Part shown: positions 3 to 16,144 of the stretch, piece after piece
How positions within the stretch are numbered: the stretch's first letter is position 1
How the letters are laid out: every line of letters begins with the position of its first letter
From: Candidatus Margulisbacteria bacterium GWF2_35_9
GTDB lineage: Bacteria; Margulisbacteria; Riflemargulisbacteria; GWF2-35-9
Length of the DNA: 16,144 bases
Reading direction: 5' to 3'
NCBI GenBank assembly: GCA_001783275.1
Contig: MFRH01000066.1
Location: 10,033-26,176, forward strand
Translations under genes and position numbers: made by a program
Notes under the pieces: model-generated
Database searches by the model: none
What the model saw: only the letters and a program-made list of their open reading frames with translations
Told to the model about the DNA's origin: nothing

Positions 3-260
3 ATGTTTTATAAAAAAGTTTTTAATGTAGAGGCAAGTTATAAGCAACTCATCTTTGGGGCAATTTTTGTCACTACCTCTATGGCCATATTTAATATTGT
101 ATTTGGTTATTTTATTGTTTATATCGCAAGTAGTTTTAACAAAACATATGGGACAATATCAAGTATTATTCTTCTATTGTTATGGTTTCAGATAAATGCA
201 TTGTTTATATTGATGGGATCAAATATTGTGATGCTAAATCAGAATAAGCATCTAGCATGA
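3..260 (+). CDS. C-terminal fragment of a YihY/BrkB-family integral membrane protein. The 5' end lies outside the window.
   Basis: Open frame from the window edge. The hydrophobic TM-rich C-terminus (…ISSIILLLLWFQINALFILMGSNIV…) resembles the conserved YihY/BrkB (RNase BN-like) C-terminal block. The TGA stop overlaps the next gene's ATG (gcATGAaa at 257-260). Confidence 0.5.
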   Translation: MFYKKVFNVEASYKQLIFGAIFVTTSMAIFNIVFGYFIVYIASSFNKTYGTISSIILLLLWFQINALFILMGSNIVMLNQNKHLA

Positions 261-3200
261 AAAAAATTTTGCGATCTATGGCTCTTTGGTGTTTCATAAT
301 AATCACCTTTATGTTTTTGAGTATTATTGTTGTAATGCATACTGGTTTGCCTCAGGCCTATTTGAGTAAATTTATAACCAGCAAGATCAGTGACTCATTT
401 CCTGCAAAAATAACCATAGGCTCCATTGGTGGCAATTTTTTATGGAAATTAACGCTTAATGATATTAAGGTAGATACTGACACGTCTCCTAAACAAAGAA
501 TATTATCGGTATCATCAATAGGGATTAGATATAACCTTTTTAACCTTTTTTTTAACCGCAATTCATCAGAAAATATAATTAATATTAATATTTCAAGACC
601 GGTGGTTTTGATAAATCGCGATAAGGATGGGATTTTTAACTTTTCAAGCTTAATTCCTCCAAAGAGTCAGAATCCTTCAAGTGCTGAGTTTCCTTATAAA
701 TTGAATATACAAGTCAATAAGGGTGAGATTAATTACACGGATTATGCTACTCCCTTGCAGGTGCAAATAAAAGATACACAAGTCCAGGCAGAGTATGCTC
801 ATTCAATGTTTAAGCTTTTTGGAGTTAGGGGCGAGGTCGCTGGTAATTCATTTTTCGTTTCAGGTAACATATCCCTTAAGGAAAGTTCTCCCGGGATAGA
901 CATAGAATTGGCTGCTGCCAACTTTGATCTCGCTTCGATTGATTTGGTTTATCCGCCAGCAAAAGCATACAAATTAGAGGGGATGGCTAATCTCAATATT
1001 ACAGCCAAGTCTGTTCCAGGACAATCAATCCCAATAATTATAGGTCGCATAAGTATCCCCCAAGCCAGCGTTTATTCTTATTCGATTGCCAATATCTCTT
1101 CTGCTTTTGAATTCAATAAGCAAAAAATTAGCTTCTTAATAGATAAAGGTCTTATTGAAAAAGGGACATTTAAAACAGAAGGTACTGCGGATTTCAGTGG
1201 GCCACAACCCGCTTTTAATATTAATGGGTCATTAATGGGAGTCGACTTACAAAATCTAGTTGGGAATACTAAAATTATTACAGGAAAAGCCGATGCAGTT
1301 TTTCAGGTGAAAGGGTCTTTAAAGCAAAACTCAATCGTGTTAAATATTAAAGGAAAAAACGCTAATGCGTATGGTCGCTCGATTATAAAAGCAGACCTGA
1401 AACTCGACCTGAATAGGGGAAGCGTACTACTAAGGAAGGCCAGCATCTATACGGACAAAAAGGGGGAAATACACGCAACAGCTACGCTTTTCAAAGATAA
1501 AAATTTTGTCACCGATCTTTCGCTTAGATCATTGTCTTTTGATTCCACTAAAATATATATCAGTTCCATGGGCTCAGCCCAGGGATACATCGATAGCGAT
1601 ACTAGGTTTAGTGGCAGACTAAGTGAACAGTTTTTTTCCTCTCCTTTAGAGAATATTAAGGTGACAAGTTTATCTAATATTAAAGAAATAGACTTGTCCT
1701 ATGTAATCACAAGCAATTCTGAGGCTATAGCTCAATCTATAGATTTGCTTTCTTTTAATCTTTCCTGGGATGGCAAGTTACTAAGTGCTGATAAGATTAC
1801 TCTGCGTGAAAAAGAAACACGCCTGTTTGGAAGTGGATTTTTTGCCCTCGATAAAAGCTATCTTTTTAAGTTTAAGGGTGCCCCGATTATGCTCGAAAAT
1901 TTTGACTCTATTATCGCCGGGAAGGGAGTCGCTAGTGGTCCAATAGTCATTCAAGGAGAGGTTAGCGGCATATTGCCCTCTTGGAATTTAATGCTGGATT
2001 TTGATGTTAAATCACCGAGCTATAAAGGACTCGTTATAGATAAGATTAAAGGCTCCCTATTAAAAAAGCAAAGCATGCTCGAGATTGCTAATATGGAGAT
2101 TAGCAATAATAAAGATCTTTACATTATTGGTGGGAAAATAAATTTACCTAATTATCAAAAAGTTGACCTAAATCTTGAGATCAAAAAAGGGTCAGTTAAA
2201 AATATAATAACCTTAATTCGTGATGGGGTTAAGGTCGCCGGTATATATAAAAGTGAGCACGTTTTTGATTCGCTTGCAGGTTTAGACGAAAAAGCACTAA
2301 CTCAGATACTTAGTATTAATGCCTCTCATAACATTAACGAATCCATTCCTGTTTACAATGAAAATCAAAATACCATAACACATTTAAAATCATTTATAAC
2401 CGATACTACTACTACTGCTAATGAAAAAAAGAATGATAATAAACAGTCTTTGATTGATGATTTAACAGGGGATATTAGCGGTAAACTCAGTTTTAATAAT
2501 CTAACGAGTAATGTGTTGATGGGTGCCGATATTGGAATAAAAAACTTAAAGTTAGCCGAGTCTACTTTTGGCTCAATAGAGATTAAAGCAGAATCTACAC
2601 CTGGACCTATCGTGTCTTCAGTGGTCGTTAGAGACGGGTTAGTTGGGGGCACCTCTTTTGAGGAGGTTAGTGCCCAGTTGCTTTATGATCAAGATAAAAC
2701 TTTAATAATTGAAAGCGTCACGATGAAGTTGCATGGTTATAAAAATATCAAAATTATATCTGGTATAGTTCCTTTAGCAGAGCTATTTGGCCCTGTTGAA
2801 AACCCTAAAGCGCTCAGTCTCAATATTGAGATAGCAGGAAATCAAATCGCTATTGTTTCTTTATTTACAAATGCCATTGAATCAGCAACGAATGAAGGGG
2901 CCCTCATTTTTAACATAGGAGGCAGTGTCAAAAAGCCAATATTAAAAAAGGGATTAATTTCGATAATTAATGGTCGATTGAATTTGAAAAAGGGACTATT
3001 TCCAGTAGCCAGCTTTGTAATTCCTGAAGTCGATATTAGGGTCAAAGATAACGTCGCCTCAATTAATGCTTTTTCCCTGTCCTGGGAAGGCGATAAAAAA
3101 TTAAAAAAAACAAATCTGATTTCTGCGAGAGGAAGTGTTGGACTTAGATTGGCTCCATCCAAAGAGACTACAAGCTTTGTCATTAATACTGATATCAAAA

Positions 3201-4450
3201 TGGATGACACGGATCTCTATCTGAATATCCCTGATCTCTGCATCGGAATGTTAAAGATACGAGAGACCTCTTTTAAAGGGGATTATTTTTTCTCTCTTTC
3301 CAAATCAGATAAAGGGATTGAGGCCCCCTTAAAAAATGGACTTTTACTAAAATCAAAGCTTGAGCTTTATGAAACGGTGCTTTCTATTCCTAAAATAAGT
3401 AAGAAAAGCAAGTTATTTCCATCCATATTGATTGATATAGAGTTCACAATGGGTAAAAATGTGTTGCTTTCAGGAGGCGTTGTTCCTGAGGGAGTACTAA
3501 GCGGTTTTATAAATAACATCGATATCTATTTTGATAAGAGTCCCCACCAGTTAATGATTGGAGGAAGCCTGAATCGATATTCAATTGAAGGGAATCTGTT
3601 CTTCAGGTATGGAACAATTGTTCTTCTTAATAAAGATTTTACCCTTATGTCTCAATCAGAGCAGGAAAAATATTTTGGGCGGTCAAAAGATCTAGCCAAG
3701 CCTAATTATATAGAGTTTCGTAAAGAAGATACTGCCCCTCTTTTGCATTTAAGAGCGATGACTGAAACAGATGTTGCACAAACAGAAGTTGGGAGTAGTT
3801 TGGGGCAGCGAGAAGTTTTTATTTTTGTTATTGATGGGACTGTAACGGATGTCTCAAATATGTATATATATCAGTTCCATCGACAAGGTTCAACGTTTAC
3901 TCCTGATGAAGGTAATCCGATTGTGATTGGTCGAATGAGTGTCGTTCAACTCGAAAAACTAAGTACTTATTTGTGGCCTGAGTTACTAAGTGTCAGTTTT
4001 TATCAGAATTTGGCCAATGAAGGGTTACAAGGGGAGTCCGCTGGAATTTTTATAAGGCAATTATCAGAACGAGCGGTGAACAATATAGTTTATAGACAGC
4101 TGCGTCCAGTTGAGAGAGAAATAGCTGATAGGATAGGTGTTGATGATATTCATTTTAATTATAATTTAGGAAATATTATAAGTGATGGCAGTTCAGATAA
4201 TAATAATGGAAAACAGGACCTTGTCGGAGTGGATATCAGTTCCAGATTATTTATTGACCGACTTTATGTCACTGTGCGTACGAATTTGGATCGACAGGAG
4301 AATGACAAAACTCTCAGTGTCGGTATTTCACAATACGAACTCAAGCTATCTTTGTTAGAGTGGCTTTCGTTGATTTATCATAACAAGACAATTTTTAGTG
4401 ATAATAGAAGTGAAGGAGTATTTGCTCTTGAAGCAGAGTACAATTTTTAA
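257..4450 (+). CDS. tamB: TamB/AsmA-like translocation and assembly module protein (1397 aa, N-terminal signal-anchor, DUF490-like C-terminus).
   Basis: Single long ORF. N-terminal TM anchor (ALWCFIIITFMFLSIIVVMHTG). Very large, predicted beta-rich periplasmic body. C-terminal amphipathic block ending …GVFALEAEYNF, typical of the TamB DUF490 C-terminus. Immediately followed by an Omp85 gene. ATGA overlap with the upstream ORF. Confidence 0.78.
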   Translation: MKKILRSMALWCFIIITFMFLSIIVVMHTGLPQAYLSKFITSKISDSFPAKITIGSIGGNFLWKLTLNDIKVDTDTSPKQRILSVSSIGIRYNLFNLFFNRNSSENIININISRPVVLINRDKDGIFNFSSLIPPKSQNPSSAEFPYKLNIQVNKGEINYTDYATPLQVQIKDTQVQAEYAHSMFKLFGVRGEVAGNSFFVSGNISLKESSPGIDIELAAANFDLASIDLVYPPAKAYKLEGMANLNITAKSVPGQSIPIIIGRISIPQASVYSYSIANISSAFEFNKQKISFLIDKGLIEKGTFKTEGTADFSGPQPAFNINGSLMGVDLQNLVGNTKIITGKADAVFQVKGSLKQNSIVLNIKGKNANAYGRSIIKADLKLDLNRGSVLLRKASIYTDKKGEIHATATLFKDKNFVTDLSLRSLSFDSTKIYISSMGSAQGYIDSDTRFSGRLSEQFFSSPLENIKVTSLSNIKEIDLSYVITSNSEAIAQSIDLLSFNLSWDGKLLSADKITLREKETRLFGSGFFALDKSYLFKFKGAPIMLENFDSIIAGKGVASGPIVIQGEVSGILPSWNLMLDFDVKSPSYKGLVIDKIKGSLLKKQSMLEIANMEISNNKDLYIIGGKINLPNYQKVDLNLEIKKGSVKNIITLIRDGVKVAGIYKSEHVFDSLAGLDEKALTQILSINASHNINESIPVYNENQNTITHLKSFITDTTTTANEKKNDNKQSLIDDLTGDISGKLSFNNLTSNVLMGADIGIKNLKLAESTFGSIEIKAESTPGPIVSSVVVRDGLVGGTSFEEVSAQLLYDQDKTLIIESVTMKLHGYKNIKIISGIVPLAELFGPVENPKALSLNIEIAGNQIAIVSLFTNAIESATNEGALIFNIGGSVKKPILKKGLISIINGRLNLKKGLFPVASFVIPEVDIRVKDNVASINAFSLSWEGDKKLKKTNLISARGSVGLRLAPSKETTSFVINTDIKMDDTDLYLNIPDLCIGMLKIRETSFKGDYFFSLSKSDKGIEAPLKNGLLLKSKLELYETVLSIPKISKKSKLFPSILIDIEFTMGKNVLLSGGVVPEGVLSGFINNIDIYFDKSPHQLMIGGSLNRYSIEGNLFFRYGTIVLLNKDFTLMSQSEQEKYFGRSKDLAKPNYIEFRKEDTAPLLHLRAMTETDVAQTEVGSSLGQREVFIFVIDGTVTDVSNMYIYQFHRQGSTFTPDEGNPIVIGRMSVVQLEKLSTYLWPELLSVSFYQNLANEGLQGESAGIFIRQLSERAVNNIVYRQLRPVEREIADRIGVDDIHFNYNLGNIISDGSSDNNNGKQDLVGVDISSRLFIDRLYVTVRTNLDRQENDKTLSVGISQYELKLSLLEWLSLIYHNKTIFSDNRSEGVFALEAEYNF

Positions 4451-6125
4451 ATTATTTCTACTGAGTGCCCTATTCTTTCCGGCGATATGCGTTGCAGGCT
4501 TGTCACCACTTACCGGAATATATGATAAGGTAATCGCACAAGTTAGGCTTGAAGGTAATCATTATATTACCTCAGCTTCTATCTTTGCCTCAGTTAACTT
4601 TGAAGCTTCTGCTAACACTCTCGTGAAGGTAGAACAAGTTAGAAATGATATAGAAAATATCTATTCATTAGGTTTTTTTAAGAGTGTAAACGTGGCGCTA
4701 AAATCTGAGAAGCAAGGGCAAGTATTGATCTATCAGTTAGAAGAAAATCCCTTGATTAAAAAAATTGTTATTAATGGGATATCAGCAGAAGACGATAATT
4801 TTTTTTTAGAGGCGATGAATACTCGTCCTTTAACTGTATTGTCCTATAAAGTTATTGATGAAGATATTCAGAGAATTAATAAAAAGCTTGTTGATTATGG
4901 CTATTCTCTTAATAGAGTTAGTAACGTTGAATTTTTAACTACTAGTAACATCGTGTTGCTGAGCATCAAAGAAACTAAAATTAATAACGTATTGATAAAT
5001 GGTAACCAACGATTTGCTGATAATCTCATTTCTCGGGAAATGACTGCTAGGAAAGGCAGGGTTTTTAACTTAAATGAAGTGAGAAAAGACAGAGATATCA
5101 TACTTGGTTTAGGATATTTTTCATCAGTTTCTGCTCCTCAACTAGTGCCTGTAAAAGACACGGATGATATTGATATCGTCTTTTCGGTTGTCGAAAGAAA
5201 AGTGAATTCTATTTCCCTTGCTCTTGAAGAAGGGCGCAAGTCTATTAACCTGACTTTTCGTAATCAGCTTGTTAATTATTTGAAGTGGGGAGAGTCTTTT
5301 TCTGCAAGAGCACAGTACGGAGAAGAGCAACTGTATAGCCTGCATTTTTATCTTCCGTGGACATTTAATCAGAGAGTTTCTCTTGGATTGAATAAATGGC
5401 TTCAAATTAGCAGAGAAAGTGATAAAAATGGCATAGATTACGATGTATTACGCAATGGGGCAGATATAATTTGGGGCTTGCCGCTGGCTGATGAAATTAA
5501 AATGTATGTAACTTATCGAAGTGAAAATGTGCGTGAAAATGTAGCTGTTCCGTCAATAATCTATACAAAAAATGATATAGAACTTGCTATCTCTTATGAG
5601 AATCGAGACAGCTTAGTCAAACCGACTAATGGCAGCTATGGCTATGCTCAGGTCAGTAAAGGCGGGAACTACGGTTTGTTTGACCTTGGCGGAATCAATT
5701 ACGTTCGTATGAGCGCGAGCTATATGCAATTTTATAAAGTAAGAGATAAGCAGGTATTCGCCTTTCGTAATAGCTATGGATCATTCAGTCCTGACCAAAA
5801 TAACATTAAATTGCTGGAGTTAGATCTATTTACTATCGGAGGAGCATCTACAATAAGAGGTTATACTGACTCTACATCACGCAGAGGGTTGCATATGTTG
5901 ACGGGTAATTATGAATATAGAATATATTTAATGGAGGCTCTGTCACTGGTGTTTTTCTATGATATGGGTATCGTTTATGAACAGGAAATATCTTTATCAG
6001 ACTTCATTGCGGGGCGTGGTTTTGGGTTTAGGTTTTTCACACCTTTTGGACCTATCAGGCTAGATTTAGCGTGGTCTAATAGTAGTGATTTTGTCTTGCA
6101 TTTTGGTTTATCAGAAATGTTCTAA
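4398..6125 (+). CDS. tamA: Omp85-family outer-membrane protein (TamA/BamA-like; POTRA repeats plus C-terminal 16-strand barrel).
   Basis: 575 aa. Signal-peptide-like N-terminus (KLFLLSALFFPAICVAG). Repeated POTRA-like segments. C-terminal 'bacterial surface antigen' barrel with terminal motif …RFFTPFGPIRLDLAWS…HFGLSEMF ending in Phe. Size and adjacency to tamB favour TamA over the essential BamA. The ATG at 4398 overlaps the tamB 3' end by 53 nt, so the true start may be slightly downstream. Confidence 0.78.
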   Translation: MIIEVKEYLLLKQSTIFKLFLLSALFFPAICVAGLSPLTGIYDKVIAQVRLEGNHYITSASIFASVNFEASANTLVKVEQVRNDIENIYSLGFFKSVNVALKSEKQGQVLIYQLEENPLIKKIVINGISAEDDNFFLEAMNTRPLTVLSYKVIDEDIQRINKKLVDYGYSLNRVSNVEFLTTSNIVLLSIKETKINNVLINGNQRFADNLISREMTARKGRVFNLNEVRKDRDIILGLGYFSSVSAPQLVPVKDTDDIDIVFSVVERKVNSISLALEEGRKSINLTFRNQLVNYLKWGESFSARAQYGEEQLYSLHFYLPWTFNQRVSLGLNKWLQISRESDKNGIDYDVLRNGADIIWGLPLADEIKMYVTYRSENVRENVAVPSIIYTKNDIELAISYENRDSLVKPTNGSYGYAQVSKGGNYGLFDLGGINYVRMSASYMQFYKVRDKQVFAFRNSYGSFSPDQNNIKLLELDLFTIGGASTIRGYTDSTSRRGLHMLTGNYEYRIYLMEALSLVFFYDMGIVYEQEISLSDFIAGRGFGFRFFTPFGPIRLDLAWSNSSDFVLHFGLSEMF

Positions 6126-7912: not shown

Positions 7913-8413
7913 TTACACGACTTTTACAAAGATGACTTTGTCGTCATTGGGCCCGTAGAAATCTTTTAACTGGGCTTCCACTATATAGTCGCTTTTTTGA
8001 TAGAATTTTCGGGTGGGTATGTATAGGTCTTTAGATGATGTTTCCACATAGATACGACCTCCCCCAATTTCCTTGATAATCATCTCGGTTCGTTTCATAA
8101 GCTCTTTGCCTATTCCGCTCTTTTGATATGTATTCTCTACAGCAATCCAGTATAGGTCGTAACTTGAAGCAGTACCCATAATCGGCCCATAACACACATA
8201 TCCAATAACTTCGCCTTCATTTTCAGCAAAAAGGAAATAGTAGCCACTTTCTTTACCTTTCTGGAGACGTTCATCAATAAGTTCAACCGCAATTTCCTGT
8301 TCTTCCTCATTAAAGAAATCCGTAGATTTAATTATCCTACGAATAGCTTCTGAATCAGTACCCAACGTTTCCTGCCGAAAGTTTAAAGAGATATTCGTTA
8401 GTTTATTTTTCAT
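7913..8413 (-). CDS. GNAT-family N-acetyltransferase (166 aa).
   Basis: Motif A …YQKSGIGKELMKRTEMIIKEIGGGRIYVETS… and C-terminal …KFYQKSDYIVEAQ… . ATG 8413-8411 overlaps the TGA of the upstream ATP-grasp gene (ATGA). Confidence 0.85.
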   Translation of the reverse strand: MKNKLTNISLNFRQETLGTDSEAIRRIIKSTDFFNEEEQEIAVELIDERLQKGKESGYYFLFAENEGEVIGYVCYGPIMGTASSYDLYWIAVENTYQKSGIGKELMKRTEMIIKEIGGGRIYVETSSKDLYIPTRKFYQKSDYIVEAQLKDFYGPNDDKVIFVKVV

Positions 8414-9402
8414 GTAGGTATCCTTATAGCTTTTATTATAATTTCAATCATTTCTTTGTAAGAAAGACCGCTTTCTTTTGCTGCTGCGACAAATCCACTA
8501 TCTTCAGCTATTCCTGGATTTGCATTAACTTCAAGTATCCATGGACGGTTGTGTTTATCCACCCGGAAATCTACTCTAGCATATGCGTTAAGACCAAAGA
8601 GTTTCCAGCAATTTAATGAAATCTGTTTAAGTTCATCCAACAACTTTTTATCACTGTCTTTGAAGGTAAATGTCCGACTGGTATTTTTATATTCAAAGGT
8701 GGTTTCCTCCCACTTAGCGGCATAGCTTACTATTTTTGCTTTGTCTTTTGGAAAATTGAAAAACTGCATTTCGGCAGGTGGTAAAACAGTTGGATTAGAA
8801 TCGGGACCAATAATGGAAATATTAAATTCCCGACCATCTATATATTCTTCAGCAAAAAAATGGTCATGCAGTCTTTCGTTCCTGTCCAGAATGAAATCGT
8901 TTAAGGCTTGTCCGCTATTAAAAGTTTTTACTGAAGAATCATCAATATTTATAGAGGCATCCTCTACTATAGATTTTACAATTACACGCTTGTTTTCTAA
9001 GGGAACAGCAGATGAAGAAGTCTTAGGATCATACCATTCTGCTGTTGGCAGGATTGCCTGTCTTAACACCGTTTTGCTTAATACCTTGTCTGTTGTTAAA
9101 TAAATGGCCTCCGCAGAACATCCACTGTATGGAATTGCGTAAAAATCTAGTAGGGCTGGGACAAGATGTAAAAAACGTCCCTCCATTTCAACCAGATTAA
9201 ATACAAACTCAGCGGTTTTTAGCTCAGGAAGAATGGACGTCAAATTTTCAGGAGATACTTGTTTTATAAGTGGATCATAGCCCAAGGCTATAATGGCCTC
9301 GTTAACATTCTTTATCTGAACAAGCGTATCCAACTGATCCTCTGCATTAGGATCAGTTATCTGCTGATGCAAAAGCACCACATTTTTTAAACGTGTAGTC
9401 AT
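8410..9402 (-). CDS. D-alanine-D-alanine-ligase-like ATP-grasp amide ligase (about 330 aa).
   Basis: C-terminal …YARVDFRVDKHNRPWILEVNANPGIAEDSGF… matches the Ddl ATP-grasp Mg/ATP site. The N-terminal Ddl-like Rossmann domain starts at MTTRLKNVVLLHQQ. I place the start at ATG 9402-9400, which forms an ATGA overlap with the upstream stop. The longest-ORF start at 9486 would instead give an 88-nt overlap. Confidence 0.82.
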   Translation of the reverse strand: MTTRLKNVVLLHQQITDPNAEDQLDTLVQIKNVNEAIIALGYDPLIKQVSPENLTSILPELKTAEFVFNLVEMEGRFLHLVPALLDFYAIPYSGCSAEAIYLTTDKVLSKTVLRQAILPTAEWYDPKTSSSAVPLENKRVIVKSIVEDASINIDDSSVKTFNSGQALNDFILDRNERLHDHFFAEEYIDGREFNISIIGPDSNPTVLPPAEMQFFNFPKDKAKIVSYAAKWEETTFEYKNTSRTFTFKDSDKKLLDELKQISLNCWKLFGLNAYARVDFRVDKHNRPWILEVNANPGIAEDSGFVAAAKESGLSYKEMIEIIIKAIRIPT

Positions 9403-11729
9403 TGCATGACCGGAGTAAGTCTTTTTACAGCTGAATCCATAATCATTTGGATCAGTTTTGTATAAGGGATTCCCATATGTCTGCAAAGAATTGGCAGGTC
9501 CGAATCATTCGGGTTTAGTCCAGCAAGTGTATTAACCTCAATAAAGTTAGGAACTCCATTTTTATCCAGACGCATATCAATTCTCCCACCATCTCTACAT
9601 CCCAAAGCTTTCCATGCTTTGATAGCGATATCTGCACTTTTTTGGGCTTCAATATCTGTTGCTATTGTATAGTGAATCATTTCCTCATAATTTTGCTTAT
9701 TAGCGTAAGAATATATCTCTTGTTCCGCATTTTTTGAAATGAATACTTCTAAGACTCCAAGAGCTTTCGCTTCAGATCCTGTACCAACTATTCCAATAGT
9801 GAATTCTCTTCCTGGCAGAAATTCTTCAACAAGAACTGCTTGTTGAAATTTAACCAACAAGTCTTTGACCGTTTGATGCAAAGTTTCTTTATCCTTTATT
9901 TTTGAAGTGGCAGTAACTCCTTTACTGCTACCTTCCGCCACTGGTTTAGCGAATAACGGGAATTCCAGATTAATGTTTTCTATATCCTCTACATTTTCCA
10001 CTACATGAAAAGCAGCGGTAGGAATTCCTTTATCTTTTAACACATGCTTTACAAGGCCTTTATGCTGGGAAAGTGAATGAATGGTTGAAGATGAAAAGGT
10101 AGAAGGAATGCCATACGCATCTAATAGGCTGGGCACTTGAGACTCCCGGGATATTCCATGTAGACCTTCGGCAATATTAAACACCAAATCCCATTTTTTC
10201 CCATTGTGCAATAGGTGAACCAAATTATGAATATTACCGATTCGATCTGTTTCGTAGCCTAATTCCTTCAAACTATTTTCAATGGCTTCAATGGTTTCTA
10301 TTTTATCAAATTCAGCGATATCCTCATTGCTGTATCCCATATTTTTATAATCTTCTTTCAAGTCATAACAGATGCCAACTTTGAGTTTTTTGCTTTTCTG
10401 CTCAGAAACAGGGTCATAGTAAGAATATATCTTGTCCTGATAGTTTTTCAACATAACCTGATTGCCATTCCGTCCAATATAATACTCTGGTAATATCGGG
10501 ATTTTTCCTCCTCCACCAGGAGCGTCTATTACATAATGAGGAATAGCATAACCAGAGGTGTGGCCTCTTAATCCCTTGATGATTTCCAGTCCTTTTTCTA
10601 CACTTGTTCGGAAGTGAGAAGATCCTTCAATAAGATCGCACTGATACAAATAGTAGGGGCGGACTCGAATCTTGAGTAGTTCATGGAACAGCTTCTTCAT
10701 AATGGGGACACTGTCATTTATACCTTTTAGTAAAACCGTCTGACTACCCAAGGGAATGCCAGCATCGGCAAGCCGATTGCAGGCCTCTCTTGTTTCTTCT
10801 GTTATTTCATCTGGATGAGTGAAATGCAGACTTAAATACAGTGGCTTGTACTTCTGCAGAATCTTTAGCAATTTTTTGGTTATTCTTTGTGGCAAGACAG
10901 CTGGTATTTTGGAGCCAATCCGAATAATTTCAAGATGTTTTATTTCGCTTAATCCTGAAAGCAACCAGTCTAGTTGCTTATCTGAAAGCGTCAAAGGATC
11001 TCCACCGGAAATAATAACATCACGTATTTCGGTATGGGCCTGAATATAATCAATAGAATCCTGCCAATCAGCAAAACCGGTTTTTTGTTTTTTAGTTACA
11101 TGACCTACTACCCGAGAGCGGGTGCAGTATCGGCAATTGACAGAACAAAAACTGGTTGCCAGAAAAAGGGCCCGGTCTGGGTATCGATGTATAATACCAT
11201 TTACGGGTCGAGTAGTGTCTTCTCCTAAGGGATCAAAGGATTCTTCCTGTGTAATTTTCAATTCATCTATAACTGGAATAACCGAACGGCGTATAGATTG
11301 TTTTCCATTTCTTTCATCCAGAAGGCTTGCATAATAGGGAGTTATTGAGATCGGAAGCTTCCCAAGTTTGCCTCTTTTTTCAAGTATCTCCCGTTCAGTA
11401 TTGCTTAGTGTAACAAATGTTTCCAGTTGTTTTAATGTTCGAATCCTGTTACGCAACTGCCACTTCCAGTTACCCCAGTTAATTTTTGTCGATCCAGGAA
11501 AGTGTTTATGATAAAACTTTGCGGATTTATTAGAAATTGGGAAACCATGGTTTTTGTTTGGGATAACAGAAGGAAGGGACATAAGATTTTTTTCATAAAT
11601 CGGCAATCTCAGACCGTGTTTTGGTAAAATAGCAATTATAGTGCCAAGCGGAGGCTCTCCTTCATCGGAATTTTCCTCAGAAATGGAACCTATATCAACC
11701 AGATTTAGGTTATTATTTTTTGTTATCAT
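9399..11729 (-). CDS. kamA: Fusion protein: lysine 2,3-aminomutase (radical-SAM KamA/AblA, residues about 70-440) fused to a C-terminal D-Ala-D-Ala-ligase-like ATP-grasp domain (about 450-776).
   Basis: N-terminal part is block-by-block colinear with Clostridium subterminale LAM: WGNWKWQLRNRI, ITPYYASLLD, HRYPDRALFLATSFCSVNCRYCTRSR (CxxxCxxC), IISGGDPLTLSD, RIGSKIPAVLPQRIT, RVRPYYLYQCDL, GLRGHTSGYAIPHYVIDAPGGGGK. C-terminal part is colinear with Ddl: WDLVFNIAEGLHG, PLFAKPVAEGSSKGV, VLVEEFLPGREFTIGIVG, GCRDGGRIDMRLDKNGVPNFIEVNTLAGL. Ends TGA at 9401-9399. Confidence 0.9.
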   Translation of the reverse strand: MITKNNNLNLVDIGSISEENSDEGEPPLGTIIAILPKHGLRLPIYEKNLMSLPSVIPNKNHGFPISNKSAKFYHKHFPGSTKINWGNWKWQLRNRIRTLKQLETFVTLSNTEREILEKRGKLGKLPISITPYYASLLDERNGKQSIRRSVIPVIDELKITQEESFDPLGEDTTRPVNGIIHRYPDRALFLATSFCSVNCRYCTRSRVVGHVTKKQKTGFADWQDSIDYIQAHTEIRDVIISGGDPLTLSDKQLDWLLSGLSEIKHLEIIRIGSKIPAVLPQRITKKLLKILQKYKPLYLSLHFTHPDEITEETREACNRLADAGIPLGSQTVLLKGINDSVPIMKKLFHELLKIRVRPYYLYQCDLIEGSSHFRTSVEKGLEIIKGLRGHTSGYAIPHYVIDAPGGGGKIPILPEYYIGRNGNQVMLKNYQDKIYSYYDPVSEQKSKKLKVGICYDLKEDYKNMGYSNEDIAEFDKIETIEAIENSLKELGYETDRIGNIHNLVHLLHNGKKWDLVFNIAEGLHGISRESQVPSLLDAYGIPSTFSSSTIHSLSQHKGLVKHVLKDKGIPTAAFHVVENVEDIENINLEFPLFAKPVAEGSSKGVTATSKIKDKETLHQTVKDLLVKFQQAVLVEEFLPGREFTIGIVGTGSEAKALGVLEVFISKNAEQEIYSYANKQNYEEMIHYTIATDIEAQKSADIAIKAWKALGCRDGGRIDMRLDKNGVPNFIEVNTLAGLNPNDSDLPILCRHMGIPYTKLIQMIMDSAVKRLTPVMQ

Positions 11730-11926: not shown

Positions 11927-12796
11927 TTAACTTTTTTTTATAGGAACTACACCTGCTAAATCACCGATCACATTAACTAGGTCAGAAGTTGATGGCACTA
12001 TAATTTTGGCATTATTTTCTAATGATTTTTGAGTTGTTTCCAAGCGTTTGAGTAATTGTGCATTACCAACAAAATATTTATTTGCAGCTTCGTTAATTGT
12101 CCTAATGGCTTCAGCTTCTCCTTCAGCTTCCAATATTCTGGCTTGTTTAATCCCTTCAGCTTTCTTAATGGATGATCGTTTTTCACCATCGGCCGCTGTT
12201 TCTGCCGCAGTTGCATAGTCAACGGCAGCAAGTTTTTCGTTTTCTGCCTTCACTATTTTATTCATCGTTTCTTGTACATCTTTTGGAGGATCAATTTGTT
12301 TAAGCTCCGCACGAACAATTTCCATACCCCATTTGGACGTTTCTTTAACAAGAATTTTTATGAGTTCCCCATTAATCCTGCCTCGCTCGCTATTAGCGGA
12401 TTTCAATGTCATGGTTCCAATAATATTACGCAGAGTTGTTCGGGCCAAGTTAACGATCTGATTATTAACATCAAAGACGTTATAAACACAATTTTTAACA
12501 GACTCTTCATCACTTTTAATTTTAAAATAAATCTGAGCATCCACTAAAGCATTAAGATTGTCATTTGTAATAATTTCTTGGGGTTCAGCATCTATCATTT
12601 GTTCAGTAATATTAATTATATAGATTAAGTCGATAAACGGAATAATCCAATTAAATCCGGGGTTTGCAAAACGTTGATATTTACCAAGTCTCTCGATTAA
12701 ACCTCTATTGGTAGGTCTTACAATCCTTATCCCCAGAACAAAAATAGCAATAACAACTATAAAAGCTGAAAAAAAAGTCATATAAATGTAATCCAT
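11927..12796 (-). CDS. SPFH/band-7 (stomatin/prohibitin/HflKC-like) membrane protein.
   Basis: N-terminal TM helix (FFSAFIVVIAIFVLGI) followed by the SPFH core (IVRPTNRGLIERLGKYQRFANPGFNWIIPFID…) and a C-terminal Ala/Glu-rich coiled coil (…EAEGEAEAIRTINEAA…). Confidence 0.85.
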   Translation of the reverse strand: MDYIYMTFFSAFIVVIAIFVLGIRIVRPTNRGLIERLGKYQRFANPGFNWIIPFIDLIYIINITEQMIDAEPQEIITNDNLNALVDAQIYFKIKSDEESVKNCVYNVFDVNNQIVNLARTTLRNIIGTMTLKSANSERGRINGELIKILVKETSKWGMEIVRAELKQIDPPKDVQETMNKIVKAENEKLAAVDYATAAETAADGEKRSSIKKAEGIKQARILEAEGEAEAIRTINEAANKYFVGNAQLLKRLETTQKSLENNAKIIVPSTSDLVNVIGDLAGVVPIKKS

Positions 12797-12991
12797 ATAA
12801 AAACCCTCCTTAATATTTTATTAACTATTTCCAAGCATAACCCATGAACTTCATAGAAGCAAACTAATAAGCTTTTTCAATAAATCAGGAATATTTCTTC
12901 CCTAAATCGTAATTAAGGGATATCATTCTCTTTACTTATAACCGTCTTTGGAAAAATATAAGTATAAAATATAAAATAAATGAGGTATAAC
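12797..12991. promoter_or_regulatory. Divergent intergenic region. Presumed promoters for the SPFH gene (minus) and the zinc-ribbon gene (plus).
   Basis: 195-nt AT-rich spacer between divergently oriented starts. Several -10-like hexamers (TATAAA/TAAAAT around 12962-12976). No confident -35 assignment. Confidence 0.3.
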
Positions 12992-13360
12992 ATGGGATTT
13001 TTCGATAAGGGAAAAAAAGATAATAATGAATTTCGATCAGAAGGAACAAAACGTAGATCCTCAGGTGGCGGTAGAGACTCATATGAAGAAAAGGAGTTAA
13101 CAACTGTCACATGCGATACCTGTGGCAAAAGTTGCACGGTACCCTTTAGACCAACAGCTGGCAAACCAGTTTATTGTAATGATTGTTTTAAGAAAAATGA
13201 TTCGGGTTCACGAAGTGACAGATCCGCCTATCCAAAACGTCGTACAGGTTCAGATTCTCGTGGTAGAAGTTCAGACAGTGGTTCTTCAAGTCGTGAATTA
13301 GCTCAGATTAATGCCAAGTTAGATCGTATTCTAGAGATGCTAGACCAAGACGCAGAATAA
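12992..13360 (+). CDS. Small C4 zinc-ribbon protein with a basic RS/SR-rich tail and a C-terminal coiled segment.
   Basis: CDTCGKSCTVPFRPTAGKPVYCNDCF (CxxC-x17-CxxC). This matches a widespread small zinc-ribbon family (C-x2-C-G-K…VPF-P…+PVYC-x2-C). GAGG lies 6 nt upstream of ATG 12992 (longest-ORF ATG is at 12980). Followed by a strong intrinsic terminator. Confidence 0.7.
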   Translation: MGFFDKGKKDNNEFRSEGTKRRSSGGGRDSYEEKELTTVTCDTCGKSCTVPFRPTAGKPVYCNDCFKKNDSGSRSDRSAYPKRRTGSDSRGRSSDSGSSSRELAQINAKLDRILEMLDQDAE

Positions 13361-13364
13361 ACTC

Positions 13365-13399
13365 TAAAAAAAGGCCATCCTTTGAATGGCCTTTTTTTT
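13365..13399. terminator. Rho-independent terminator, potentially bidirectional.
   Basis: A8 run (13365-13372), GGCCAT (13373-13378) / ATGGCC (13386-13391) stem with 7-nt loop CCTTTGA, then T8 (13392-13399). Sits immediately 3' of the zinc-ribbon gene. Confidence 0.75.
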
Positions 13400-13607: not shown

Positions 13608-14105
13608 ATGGCAGAAACATCGGGCATTTCTTTCAACGCTGGCATCAATTCTGGTTCGTTAGGTATCAATTCCAAACAAGACGTAGATGCTTTATCTGCA
13701 TTAACTGAGGAATATAGCGCAGGCAGTTTTTCTATAAATGGCACGTCGTTTATAAACAGTTTTCAAAATGAACTCGACGATTTACAAGAAGTGTCGCAGG
13801 TCTCATTATCCTCTATGACATTAGGTGGATCTGTTGATAATATCAAAGATGCAGTAAGTAGTATCGCCAATAAATTAGGCGTTTCCTTTAATGATGCAAT
13901 CAACATGCTCAAAACAACTGGCGGTAAAAATATTGATACAGATCCATTAGATAAAAAGAATGCCCTTCACAATTCAACTCCTTTTGATGAGATGAAAAAC
14001 ATACAAGCACTCTATTCAAGATTTGAAGACGAAGATGAAAAAAAAGTTGATAGTACTATTATTTCAGCGATAAACCCGACCTATCAATCAACGATGGTTT
14101 TCTAA
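13608..14105 (+). CDS. Hypothetical acidic Ser/Asn-rich protein (165 aa) with no signal peptide and no recognised domain.
   Basis: AGGAG (13598-13602) lies 5 nt upstream of ATG 13608. The ORF is uninterrupted. Composition is low-complexity and acidic (many D/E/S/N). I recognise no homolog. Confidence 0.5.
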   Translation: MAETSGISFNAGINSGSLGINSKQDVDALSALTEEYSAGSFSINGTSFINSFQNELDDLQEVSQVSLSSMTLGGSVDNIKDAVSSIANKLGVSFNDAINMLKTTGGKNIDTDPLDKKNALHNSTPFDEMKNIQALYSRFEDEDEKKVDSTIISAINPTYQSTMVF

Positions 14106-14260: not shown

Positions 14261-15550
14261 ATGAGGCTCTTAAACTTTCAGGTTAATTACTATAAATGCA
14301 TCAGTGATTCCGGTATTATCAACATTAACGATATTGCGTGTTTCATTGGCAACAACAATAGTGGAAAAACAGCTTTATTTGAAGCTCTTTACAAATTGAA
14401 CCCCGCTTTTTCGAAAAACAAGTTTTTTGAGTCTGATGATTTTCCAAAAGACAAGATTGAATACCAAAACTCTAAAACAAGAGTAATTACTTGTACCTTT
14501 AAACTAACTGATGCAGAATTAATATTTATTAATAAAAAATTTGGAGACCATTGCATAAATTCCGATATTATTACTGTATCAAGAGACTATGCAAATAATC
14601 TCCATTGGGATTTTGAAATTAACGAAGAAAGTTATGTTAAACATCTTATTGATAAAAGAAATTTAACAAAATTATTTGAGAAACATTTAAGTAAGATTAA
14701 TTCAGTGGAATCCTGCTATAGTGTTGCGAAGGAATTGCCTCCTCTATCAACCAGCCTCGTTTCGTTTATTACCCAACTTGAATTATTGAAAATTCGTTCA
14801 ATGAAGGAAGAAATTATTGAAGGATACTTTCAACACTGGATACCCAAATTCCTATATATTTCTGAAGTTCATAAGCTACCGGGTTATTTTTCATTAAAAC
14901 AAATAACCAAAGCCCTCTCTTCATCAGATGATGTTAAAGAAGCTGCAAAAACAGCTTTAGCTTTCTTAAAACTACTGGAAGTAGATATTAACAGCTTATT
15001 AACCGAACCAGATAATAATAAACTACTTGAAACAATGAATAACTTATCAAGTAATCTGTCATCACACCTTTCTTCCATTTTACAAATTTTTGAACATCTA
15101 CAAATTGATATTGATATTCAATCCCTAGTTGCCCAAAATGTTCGTATTGATTCCACAATTTATATCAACATAACCAATAAAGAAACTAAGATCACTTTAC
15201 CTATTGGAAAACATGGAAAATCACTAGTTTATTTTTTATCGTTCCTTTGCTCCTTATCAATAATAAAAGATAAAACCGAACCATATATAATACTTATTGA
15301 TACACCCTCAGATCATTTAAGCATCGATGCTCAATCCGAATTTTGTAAATATATTCATGATGTATTAACACAAAAACACCAAATTCTATATACAACACAT
15401 TCTCCATTTATGATTAATACGAAAGCAAAAGACAATCTTTATTCTGTCTTTATCAAACCAAACTTCGGGACTGTCGTATCTCAAGACGTAAACTCAGATT
15501 CACTGACAAAGAAGATTTCAGATATCGCAGACAAATTCTATTCGAAATAA
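14261..15550 (+). CDS. OLD/AAA_15-type ABC ATPase (429 aa) with a degenerate Walker B. Putative orphan defence/abortive-infection ATPase.
   Basis: N-terminus MRLLNFQVNYYKCI…ININDIACFIGNNNSGKTALFEAL matches the OLD-family start (MkIkslkIkNF…) and has the P-loop GxNxSGKT. It has a long helical insert. The C-terminal …PYIILIDTPSDHLSIDAQ…QILYTTHSPFMI gives Walker B hhhhD plus the TTHSP H-loop. The canonical DEPE…LHP is DTPS…LSI here. No TOPRIM or nuclease domain is present, and no partner gene lies downstream. Confidence 0.72.
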   Translation: MRLLNFQVNYYKCISDSGIININDIACFIGNNNSGKTALFEALYKLNPAFSKNKFFESDDFPKDKIEYQNSKTRVITCTFKLTDAELIFINKKFGDHCINSDIITVSRDYANNLHWDFEINEESYVKHLIDKRNLTKLFEKHLSKINSVESCYSVAKELPPLSTSLVSFITQLELLKIRSMKEEIIEGYFQHWIPKFLYISEVHKLPGYFSLKQITKALSSSDDVKEAAKTALAFLKLLEVDINSLLTEPDNNKLLETMNNLSSNLSSHLSSILQIFEHLQIDIDIQSLVAQNVRIDSTIYINITNKETKITLPIGKHGKSLVYFLSFLCSLSIIKDKTEPYIILIDTPSDHLSIDAQSEFCKYIHDVLTQKHQILYTTHSPFMINTKAKDNLYSVFIKPNFGTVVSQDVNSDSLTKKISDIADKFYSK

Positions 15551-15591: not shown

Positions 15592-16014
15592 CTATTTAAA
15601 AACGCGTCTTAAAACCATATAAAACGTTTCTTTTCTAAATGGCTTAACAATATAATAACTTGCACCCATCTGCATTGCTTGGATAACTCGATTCTTATCA
15701 CCTAACGCAGAGACCATAATAATTTTTGTATTTGGGTATCCCTCAACTATTTCTGGCAACGTAGTTAATCCATCCTTAATTGGCATTGTTATATCTAGGG
15801 TAACCAAATCAACAGGCTCATTTATTTCTGCTAACAATTTAAGGGCTTCTTCACCATTTTTTGCGGATCCAATAACATTTAATCCGAAATCTTTTAAAGT
15901 ACGCGTTACAATTTTTATCATTGCAATTGAATCATCGATTATGAATGCATTTAACGGTTTACCGTCTTCTTTTACACCAAGTACCATTAACTCATCATTA
16001 GCATTTTTTAACAT
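15592..16014 (-). CDS. Stand-alone CheY-like response-regulator receiver domain protein (140 aa).
   Basis: Receiver signature: acidic pair IIDDS, phospho-acceptor context LVTLDITMP, IMVSA (Thr/Ser position), and VKPF (conserved Lys). SD-like AAGGGG lies 5 nt before ATG 16014. No output domain. Confidence 0.85.
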   Translation of the reverse strand: MLKNANDELMVLGVKEDGKPLNAFIIDDSIAMIKIVTRTLKDFGLNVIGSAKNGEEALKLLAEINEPVDLVTLDITMPIKDGLTTLPEIVEGYPNTKIIMVSALGDKNRVIQAMQMGASYYIVKPFRKETFYMVLRRVFK

Positions 16015-16144
16015 ATTTACCCCTTATTACGTGTATACTTTATTTTATTATACTCATTTGTTAAGCAAAATAAAATACTTATTCTGTTTCTTGTATATAA
16101 TACAACCATTTATGTTACTATTTCGATATGTGCGCCAAGCGAAG

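Follow-up and report, generated by a model that had tools for sequence, protein, structure and literature searches.

A TOPRIM-less, motif-degenerate offshoot of class 1 OLD nucleases in Candidatus Margulisbacteria

OLD proteins have been studied as immune effectors that combine an ATPase with a nuclease. Class 1 of the family, in which ATPase and TOPRIM domains are fused, is defined by a solitary gene with no UvrD-like helicase downstream, no reverse transcriptase upstream and no DUF4435 neighbor (PMC12392090). Here, a stretch of 16,144 nucleotides from Candidatus Margulisbacteria bacterium GWF2_35_9 (contig MFRH01000066.1, positions 10,033 to 26,176 of the forward strand; referred to as the window) was analyzed, which carries the gene for an OLD-related, ATPase-like protein (the window protein) at 14261..15550. 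The domain and motif content of this protein and its relatives suggests, with moderate confidence, that the product is a functional protein which descends from a class 1 (fused ATPase-TOPRIM) OLD nuclease and has been stripped catalytically.

The ATPase site of class 1 proteins has been dissected in OLD from Thermus scotoductus (Ts OLD), where K34 belongs to the P-loop, E276 is the Walker B acid, and H283 and H310 lie in the D-loop and H-loop, respectively (PMC7049728). The alanine substitutions tested for hydrolysis include K34A, H140A and E276A; H140A and H283A abrogate ATP hydrolysis, the D-loop substitution H306A abolishes killing by P2 OLD, and the helical insert of Ts OLD is its dimerization domain (PMC7049728). 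Degenerate ABC sites, with Walker B Glu changed to Asp, Ser or Asn and with altered H-loop and signature, retain bound ATP for minutes and do not hydrolyze it (PMC7756269). For GajA, ATP binding without hydrolysis has been reported, as cited in PMC12796447. The OLD-family protein Cran1 has a role outside of defense.

Family assignment and catalytic motifs of the window protein

The gene and the motifs of its ATPase domain are located as follows:
14261..15550, + strand: ATPase-like gene, 429 amino acids, stop codon included (open reading frame call, AAA_15, structure model)
14348..14371, + strand: Walker A / P-loop GNNNSGKT, G30-T37, intact, read from the DNA
15212..15223, + strand: degenerate ABC signature position H318-G-K-S321, where relatives carry R-S-x-G
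15284..15310, + strand: Walker B strand and D347-T348-P349-S350, with Asp kept and the catalytic-type Glu replaced by Thr
15320..15322, + strand: D-loop position S354, His in 100% of 66-67 full-length relatives, corresponding to Ts OLD H283
15389..15412, + strand: H-loop YTTHSPFM, Y377-M384, His380 kept, aligned to Ts OLD H310

The open reading frame starts with an ATG that agrees with M1 of the homologs and contains no stops, against 32.5 expected from its composition and 19-49 in the remaining five frames. Its 429-amino-acid product is identical to a protein annotated as hypothetical in Candidatus Margulisbacteria bacterium GWF2_35_9. Pfam AAA_15 (PF13175) spans the whole protein (E=5.1e-20, 72.9 bits against a cut-off of 32.1), while SMC_N (26.8 bits against a cut-off of 40), AAA_23 and ABC_tran all stayed below cut-off. 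The NCBIfam RecF model, with a cut-off of 172 bits, reached 26.6 bits, and like the SMC model it matched the P-loop region only. A RecF/SbcC-like housekeeping ATPase, which the initial annotation had named as a match that would refute its assignment, is therefore not the better match. The best matches of the protein among the PADLOC models were AriA, NsnB, Old and GajA, with PtuA models at E values of about 1e-7 only; the AriA match runs from end to end, as does the generic AAA_15 match.

When the window protein alone was compared with the PDB by phmmer, no significant match was obtained. With a profile of the family, the best solved structure was the class 1 OLD of T. scotoductus, 6P74 (E=2.3e-19). 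The AlphaFold model (predicted local distance difference test score, pLDDT, of 91.5; predicted template modeling score, pTM, of 0.88) shows large helical inserts at residues 122-193 and 212-273, in line with the large insert described in the initial annotation. Fold searches confirmed an ABC ATPase fold and gave similar scores for PtuA, retron ATPases, SMC, Rad50, GajA and Ts OLD. Since this fold is common to all of these ATPases, the placement with OLD comes from the sequence and not from the fold. By its full-length PF13175 match and by its nesting among OLD sequences, the protein is an AAA_15/OLD-type ABC ATPase relative, as had been proposed.

The P-loop residues are 100% conserved in the full-length relatives (T37 in 82%), and the pattern GxNxSGKT noted before corresponds to GNNNSGKT at residues 30-37 of the window protein. 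The signature is conserved in these relatives (R 94%, S 94%, G 100%), and in a profile comparison the family motif RSrGF aligned to LSDGQ of the retron Ec78 ATPase; in the window protein this position is degenerate. The Walker B strand reads YIILID347, and a beta-strand at 342-346 directly precedes D347 in the model. It is followed by D-T-P-S, encoded by the codons gat aca ccc tca at nucleotides 15299-15310. Among the full-length relatives, 95-96% have Glu next to the Walker B Asp; the window protein has Thr there, so the reported degeneration of DEPE to DTPS holds. It had been left open whether homologs carry D-E or D-T at this position, and whether DTPS is the true Walker B at all. Alignments with 18 and with 67 homologs placed ILIDTPS of the window protein on LLLDEPG of the family, and in the profile register LLLDEPGLNLH aligned to VIIEEPEMYLH of 6P74, which contains Ts OLD E276-E277. 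The location of DTPS on the DEPG column, together with the 6P74 register, identifies it as the Walker B region and excludes a misalignment.

In the Ts OLD register, D347 corresponds to E276 and is kept, T348 corresponds to E277 and is replaced, S354 corresponds to H283, whose His is lost, and H380 corresponds to H310 and is kept. The H-loop, already recognized from TTHSP, could be read from the sequence as YTTHSPFM. Another histidine, His352, lies nearby. The initial annotation overlooked both the loss of the signature motif and that of the D-loop His, as judged from these alignments. Of the 54 ATPase-domain columns that are conserved to at least 80%, the window protein keeps 38, the lowest number among 68 sequences, and the missed columns cluster in R-S-x-G, at the Walker B Glu and the Gly that follows, at the D-loop His and in a Y-W-x-Q-N motif.

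Loss of the TOPRIM domain in a monophyletic subclade

In the word-indexed homology search, homologs outside the source genome had lengths of 560-714 amino acids, except for two short entries, P0074 (465 amino acids) and P0020 (562 amino acids). The full-length homologs run on past the ATPase domain into a TOPRIM domain with the pattern DTLFPLQAALGY...LLVEGPSDLIYL...PVGG...D...DIEDLF. Pfam PF20469 scored above cut-off in P0002 and P0012 and gave no match on the window protein. In the alignment, the window protein stops exactly at the boundary where the TOPRIM domain of its relatives begins. Its last residues form a short helix:
15494..15547, + strand: C-terminal tail, residues 412-429, short helix, pLDDT about 50
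A pairing of 'SDIADKF' in this tail with 'ADIEDLF' of the TOPRIM region, produced by MAFFT, is likely an artefact, because the other tails of the subclade described below lack it.

A remnant of TOPRIM-coding sequence was not found by tblastn with seven to eighteen TOPRIM regions, neither in the window or its longer contig nor in the loci L089 and L090, which carry ATPase-like genes of their own. As a positive control, the same queries matched the frameshifted locus L092 at E=1e-85:
L092, 4001-6008: recent OLD pseudogene P0295, with the TOPRIM part directly downstream at 5268-6005 and transposase genes around it
This class 1-like OLD retains the canonical motifs RSRGF, DEPG and TTHSPFM and is interrupted by a premature stop.

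The full-length relatives are solitary genes in mixed contexts, including housekeeping genes, a Type ISP restriction enzyme and a recombinase/MqsA element; no helicase, reverse transcriptase, AriB or DUF4435 neighbors were found around those examined. By sequence, the nearest characterized kin of the window protein are fused ATPase and TOPRIM, stand-alone, class 1-like OLD nucleases. Because these kin are fused, an entire domain has been lost, which goes beyond the mere absence of a neighboring gene. The initial annotation, which had looked for a nuclease partner downstream, overlooked this kinship and hence the loss of a whole domain.

The word-indexed search missed every short relative of the window protein. 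On the basis of that search the gene was regarded in the interim as a unique truncated or decaying gene, a reading that was dropped once an exhaustive HMMER search of 1.84 billion representative proteins showed a subclade of similar proteins. The four best non-self matches were short: P0122 (433 amino acids, E=4.5e-79), P0123 (429 amino acids), P0124 (368 amino acids, N-terminally incomplete) and P0125 (446 amino acids). L091, an N-terminal fragment, was added by a metagenome scan. The subclade, which is tiny and uncultured, thus comprises six sequences seen, four complete and two partial, and the other members are 29-36% identical to the window protein. Gene maps were retrieved for P0122, P0123 and P0125. 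All three genes are complete and lie inside their contigs, with a convergent gene behind each, and their short length is therefore not an assembly artefact. Wherever a C-terminus is available, the members terminate at one shared alignment position, just ahead of the TOPRIM domain.

The catalytic motifs have degenerated across the subclade in a consistent manner. In the five members with an N-terminus, the P-loop residues G30, G35, K36 and S/T37 are kept in 5/5, and N32 is kept save for a Ser in P0125. The position of the Walker B Glu reads T, T, N, D and N, the signature R and G are absent in all members, and the D-loop His position reads S, D, H, S and Q. The H-loop His is found in the window protein only, with Gln in the four others that include this region. 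Retained are the Walker B acid, P349, Q358 and YTTxSPFM. Conservation in the subclade no longer peaks at a catalytic motif, and its strongest stretch lies in the helical insert:
14762..14839, + strand: helical-insert motif, residues 168-193, SFITQLELLKIRSMKEEIIEGYFQHW, conserved in the TOPRIM-less subclade only
Here the subclade follows the pattern SFIxQLEiLxlRsMxdEIieGYfxxW, with S168, L176, R179, E184, G188 and Y189 invariant, and the model places helices at 164-178 and 181-193. Block conservation was 0.77 in the subclade, compared to 0.24 in 66 full-length relatives. Constraint has moved from the catalytic motifs to the helical insert.

Neighbor-joining trees recovered the subclade as a monophyletic group in 40/40 bootstraps; its stem of 0.37 compares with a median internal branch of 0.06. 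Its distance to the full-length proteins is 2.05-2.30, against 1.39-1.52 for its nearest full-length kin. In 40/40 replicates it was nested among TOPRIM-bearing sequences, which makes loss of the TOPRIM domain the parsimonious reading. P0041 is a frequent sister of the subclade; with canonical motifs and a TOPRIM domain, it was ruled out as an intermediate.

Genomic context and inheritance

The surroundings of the gene in the window and at the other loci are listed here:
15592..16014, - strand: convergent stand-alone REC/CheY-like gene (PF00072, E=2.7e-25), used as a synteny marker only
13608..14105, + strand: orf165, upstream ORFan, 165 amino acids, D+E 23, K+R 11
Window, upstream gene: orf165
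L090 (P0123), upstream gene: PiT-type phosphate transporter fragment
P0122 contig, upstream gene: EamA
P0125 contig, upstream genes: cyclic nucleotide monophosphate (cNMP)-binding protein and a 936-amino-acid protein
L091, upstream gene: LpxC-like
L089, 2036-3337: ATPase-like gene, GC (guanine plus cytosine) content 0.333, flanks 0.365
L090, 450-1739: ATPase-like gene, GC content 0.309, flanks 0.40

In L090, the gene convergent to P0123 encodes a CheY that is 69% identical to the window CheY, and P0123 and the window protein are about 35% identical. With the 69%-identical CheY beside both, P0123 is a positional ortholog of the window protein, and the ATPase-like gene has diverged much more quickly than the adjoining CheY gene. 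P0122 sits in a 23.7-kb housekeeping contig with rpsB, tsf, guaA, bipA and glutamine synthetase. No TOPRIM, DUF4435, HNH, helicase or reverse transcriptase gene adjoins the ATPase-like gene in the window or in any other subclade locus examined. For the window this agrees with the initial annotation, which had described a convergent CheY and no TOPRIM or HNH partner downstream. The PADLOC scan that it had suggested returned the models named above for the window protein and no matches for the four window neighbors tested. No relatives of the ATPase-like protein were found in viral contigs or phages.

As described before, the upstream 165-amino-acid protein is acidic. It is also rich in S, T and N, and its gene, which has a good Shine-Dalgarno sequence, lies 155 bp 5' of the ATPase-like gene in the same orientation, and no terminator is predicted in the gap. 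It gave no Pfam, NCBIfam or PADLOC matches, and no homologs beyond itself were found among 5.8 billion proteins. Without homologs, orf165 is not a conserved partner, and the suggestion that it could be one is further contradicted by its absence upstream of every other subclade member.

The GC content of the ATPase-like gene in the window is 0.30, compared to about 0.36-0.385 for most neighboring genes. Taken with the apparent vertical inheritance, the low GC content points to weak constraint or low expression more readily than to recent transfer. The gene has no Shine-Dalgarno sequence, which is also true of four or five other window genes, and this absence is therefore uninformative on decay.

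Several other features of the window were recorded. Independent assemblies all end 300-700 bp past the ATPase-like gene, just beyond CheY (window 16015-16144). Positions 11880-11995 of L001 run 75 nucleotides past the window into more GC-rich DNA without an Rfam or tRNA match, and nothing was found when the window and the contig end were scanned for Rfam families and tRNAs; the contig-end region may be a repeat or a strain-variable junction. Within 12980-13398 lie a gene for a small protein with a treble-clef zinc finger (PF23477, E=4.5e-16), its true start probably at the second ATG, 12992, which has GAGG upstream, and, after this gene, a strong bidirectional intrinsic terminator at 13366-13398. 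The SPFH/Band 7 protein at 11927-12796 (- strand, 289 amino acids) is unusually conserved, being 70-80% identical in Omnitrophota, Ignavibacteriota, Bacteroidota, Planctomycetota, Spirochaetota and others. At 9399-11729 (- strand) a radical-SAM lysine-2,3-aminomutase (LAM) is fused to a D-Ala-D-Ala-ligase-type ATP-grasp domain (776 amino acids); then come a second ATP-grasp gene (8410-9486) and a GNAT acetyltransferase gene (7913-8413), so that the aminomutase cluster covers 7913-11729 on the - strand. The cluster is reminiscent of a beta-lysine pathway of the ablA/ablB type to which ligases have been added, and its product may be a beta-lysine peptide or osmolyte. Synteny through the SPFH neighbor was considered and set aside, as the 80 loci were not from close relatives and none contained the ATPase-like gene, orf165 or the LAM cluster. 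The genes at 257-6125 (+ strand) encode a TamB-like protein (DUF748, 1397 amino acids) and an Omp85/POTRA protein (575 amino acids) and overlap at their ends; the pair fits a Margulisbacteria genome with a diderm envelope.

Proposed role, alternatives and comparison with known systems

Rather than dying, the gene probably encodes a repurposed ATP-binding protein. In the proposed course of events, the whole TOPRIM nuclease domain of the ancestor would have been lost, and the lineage would later have lost the Walker B Glu, the D-loop His and the R-S-x-G signature, with most members also losing the H-loop His. With P-loop and Walker B Asp retained, these motifs suggest that Mg-ATP could still be bound, with a turnover that would be very slow or nil, as in the degenerate sites of asymmetric ABC proteins. 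Mg-ATP is most likely bound by the window protein and hydrolyzed poorly or not at all, a reading of the motifs for which the mutants of Ts and P2 OLD, degenerate ABC sites, GajA and YbjD provide the grounds. Of the options raised in the initial annotation, that of an ATP-binding, non-hydrolyzing protein appears to fit best, given the kept P-loop and Walker B Asp and the missing Glu, His and signature. The protein would act as a nucleotide-bound switch or scaffold without nuclease activity of its own and without a conserved neighboring partner. Its output would probably pass through the helical insert, its most conserved part, which may mediate dimerization by analogy with Ts OLD. A cellular, non-nuclease role is favored over a classical mobile defense module because of the core-genome context, the positional orthology and vertical inheritance, and the absence of partners and mobile elements. 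A more specific and only tentative proposal is that the subclade represents a domesticated, vertically inherited OLD pseudo-ATPase that might exert a cellular role, possibly linked to CheY, through bound ATP and a re-purposed dimerization insert. If true, the subclade would in effect add to the OLD classes one that lacks both nuclease and hydrolytic ATPase, present in Margulisbacteria-like bacteria.

Several points weigh against a repurposed, non-hydrolyzing protein. The retained H-loop His and the nearby His352 make residual hydrolysis possible, judging from sequence. In Cran1, replacement of both Walker B glutamates by Ala had no effect, and since this Glu is dispensable there, motif loss is no proof of inactivity in this family. 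The low GC content in three loci and the long branches could reflect relaxed constraint, and the divergence may be partly compositional, as the genomes are AT-rich. Four independent assemblies of the locus are 100% identical in DNA, and the orthologs (~35%) are too divergent for an estimate of the synonymous substitution rate (dS) or dN/dS. Finally, no conserved partner or operon that would give a functional clue was found in the subclade loci.

In a first alternative, the gene would be a decaying remnant, a truncated and inactivated class 1 OLD defense gene that is being lost and has no functional product. The missing TOPRIM domain, the lowest count of family-conserved ATPase columns (38/54 among 68 sequences), the GC content of 0.30, the absent Shine-Dalgarno sequence and the lack of a significant PDB match for the protein alone could all be read in this way. 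Yet the same architecture and motif losses recur in five other sequences with 29-36% identity, of which the three mapped are complete. The monophyly of this subclade, the positional ortholog P0123, the new subclade-specific conservation in the insert and the absence of stops (0 against 32.5 expected) would likewise not be expected of a degenerating defense gene, as the initial annotation had alternatively suggested. The Shine-Dalgarno sequence is missing from several other window genes too, and the genuine recent pseudogene in L092 looks different, having canonical motifs and TOPRIM coding sequence downstream. An intact, stand-alone gene has been retained over a long time. Decay is thus very improbable.

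Two further explanations keep the protein in immunity. It could be the sensor ATPase of a split system resembling PARIS, Septu or Gabija, with orf165 or a gene located elsewhere providing the nuclease or effector. This is unlikely: no TOPRIM, DUF4435, HNH or helicase gene adjoins in five subclade contexts, the downstream gene is convergent in the window and in the three mapped members, and the neighbors have no PADLOC matches. It is true that ATPase-only members of the superfamily usually pair with a nuclease partner (PARIS literature), that AriA, NsnB, Old and GajA are the best PADLOC matches and that orf165 lies close by in the same orientation without an intervening predicted terminator. 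However, the AriA match extends from end to end like the generic AAA_15 match, the sequence nests in fused class 1-like OLDs, and orf165 has no homolog, its place being taken elsewhere by EamA, PiT, LpxC or a 936-amino-acid protein. Somewhat less improbable, though still doubtful, is a nuclease-independent anti-phage protein whose ATPase-like domain alone gives defense or toxicity. YbjD without TOPRIM, and YbjD K35A, keep anti-phage phenotypes (PMC13261556), the family is overwhelmingly associated with defense, and the fast evolution of the gene (35% identity, compared to 69% for the adjoining CheY) is typical of conflict genes. Against this stand the core-genome-like context, the positional orthology, the lack of mobile elements and defense neighbors, and the fact that no viral counterpart was found. 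Moreover, Vc OLD and P2 OLD need ATPase and TOPRIM residues alike, and YbjD has canonical motifs, which the window protein does not.

Read as a catalytically stripped descendant, the subclade is a natural experiment on the ATPase module alone, in which nuclease and hydrolysis would be gone, the nucleotide pocket kept and the insert tightened. This parallels laboratory findings on YbjD, which is active without TOPRIM or with a Walker A mutation, and on the non-defense role of Cran1. It is also a warning for annotation, as an AAA_15/AriA-like match alone does not indicate a defense system. In a limited literature search, no description of a TOPRIM-less, partner-less, motif-degenerate class 1 OLD offshoot was found.

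Among ABC proteins, the degenerate sites of CFTR/ABCC7 (nucleotide-binding site 1, NBS1), ABCB11 and Pdr5 show the same set of changes with a mostly intact P-loop, and the Walker B Glu of asymmetric ABC transporters is replaced by Asp, Ser, Asn or Met (PMC7756269). In these transporters the degenerate site pairs with a canonical site in a heterodimer, whereas the soluble window protein is degenerate as a whole and has no known canonical partner. In PARIS, the class 4 protein AriA adjoins a gene for the TOPRIM (DUF4435) protein AriB, and the PtuA of Septu and retrons works with an adjoining HNH nuclease, PtuB; neither arrangement occurs at the window or subclade loci, and the window protein branches within the fused class 1-like OLDs and not with AriA or PtuA. 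GajA of Gabija (class 2) resembles the proposed role in that nucleotide is reported to be bound without hydrolysis as a regulatory ligand, as cited in PMC12796447; unlike the window locus, it has a TOPRIM domain and a helicase partner, GajB. Cran1 (class 5, Sulfolobales) provides the precedent for a vertically inherited OLD protein with a cellular role, although this archaeal protein, unlike the window protein, retains all active-site residues and an active TOPRIM nickase.

The closest systems are the class 1 OLDs, namely P2 Old, Ts OLD (6P74), Vibrio cholerae OLD and E. coli YbjD/OldB. The window protein lacks their TOPRIM domain, their Walker B Glu (Thr instead), their D-loop His (Ser instead) and the R-S-x-G signature conserved in its nearest clade. 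Because the TOPRIM domain is the defining feature of the OLD nuclease family, the window protein is not an OLD nuclease, although it would work in the manner of an OLD/ABC nucleotide sensor. It shares with class 1 the ATPase fold, the helical insert and the stand-alone gene, its P-loop, Walker B acid and H-loop His align to K34, E276 and H310 of Ts OLD, and it differs from class 1 in carrying the subclade-specific motif in its insert.

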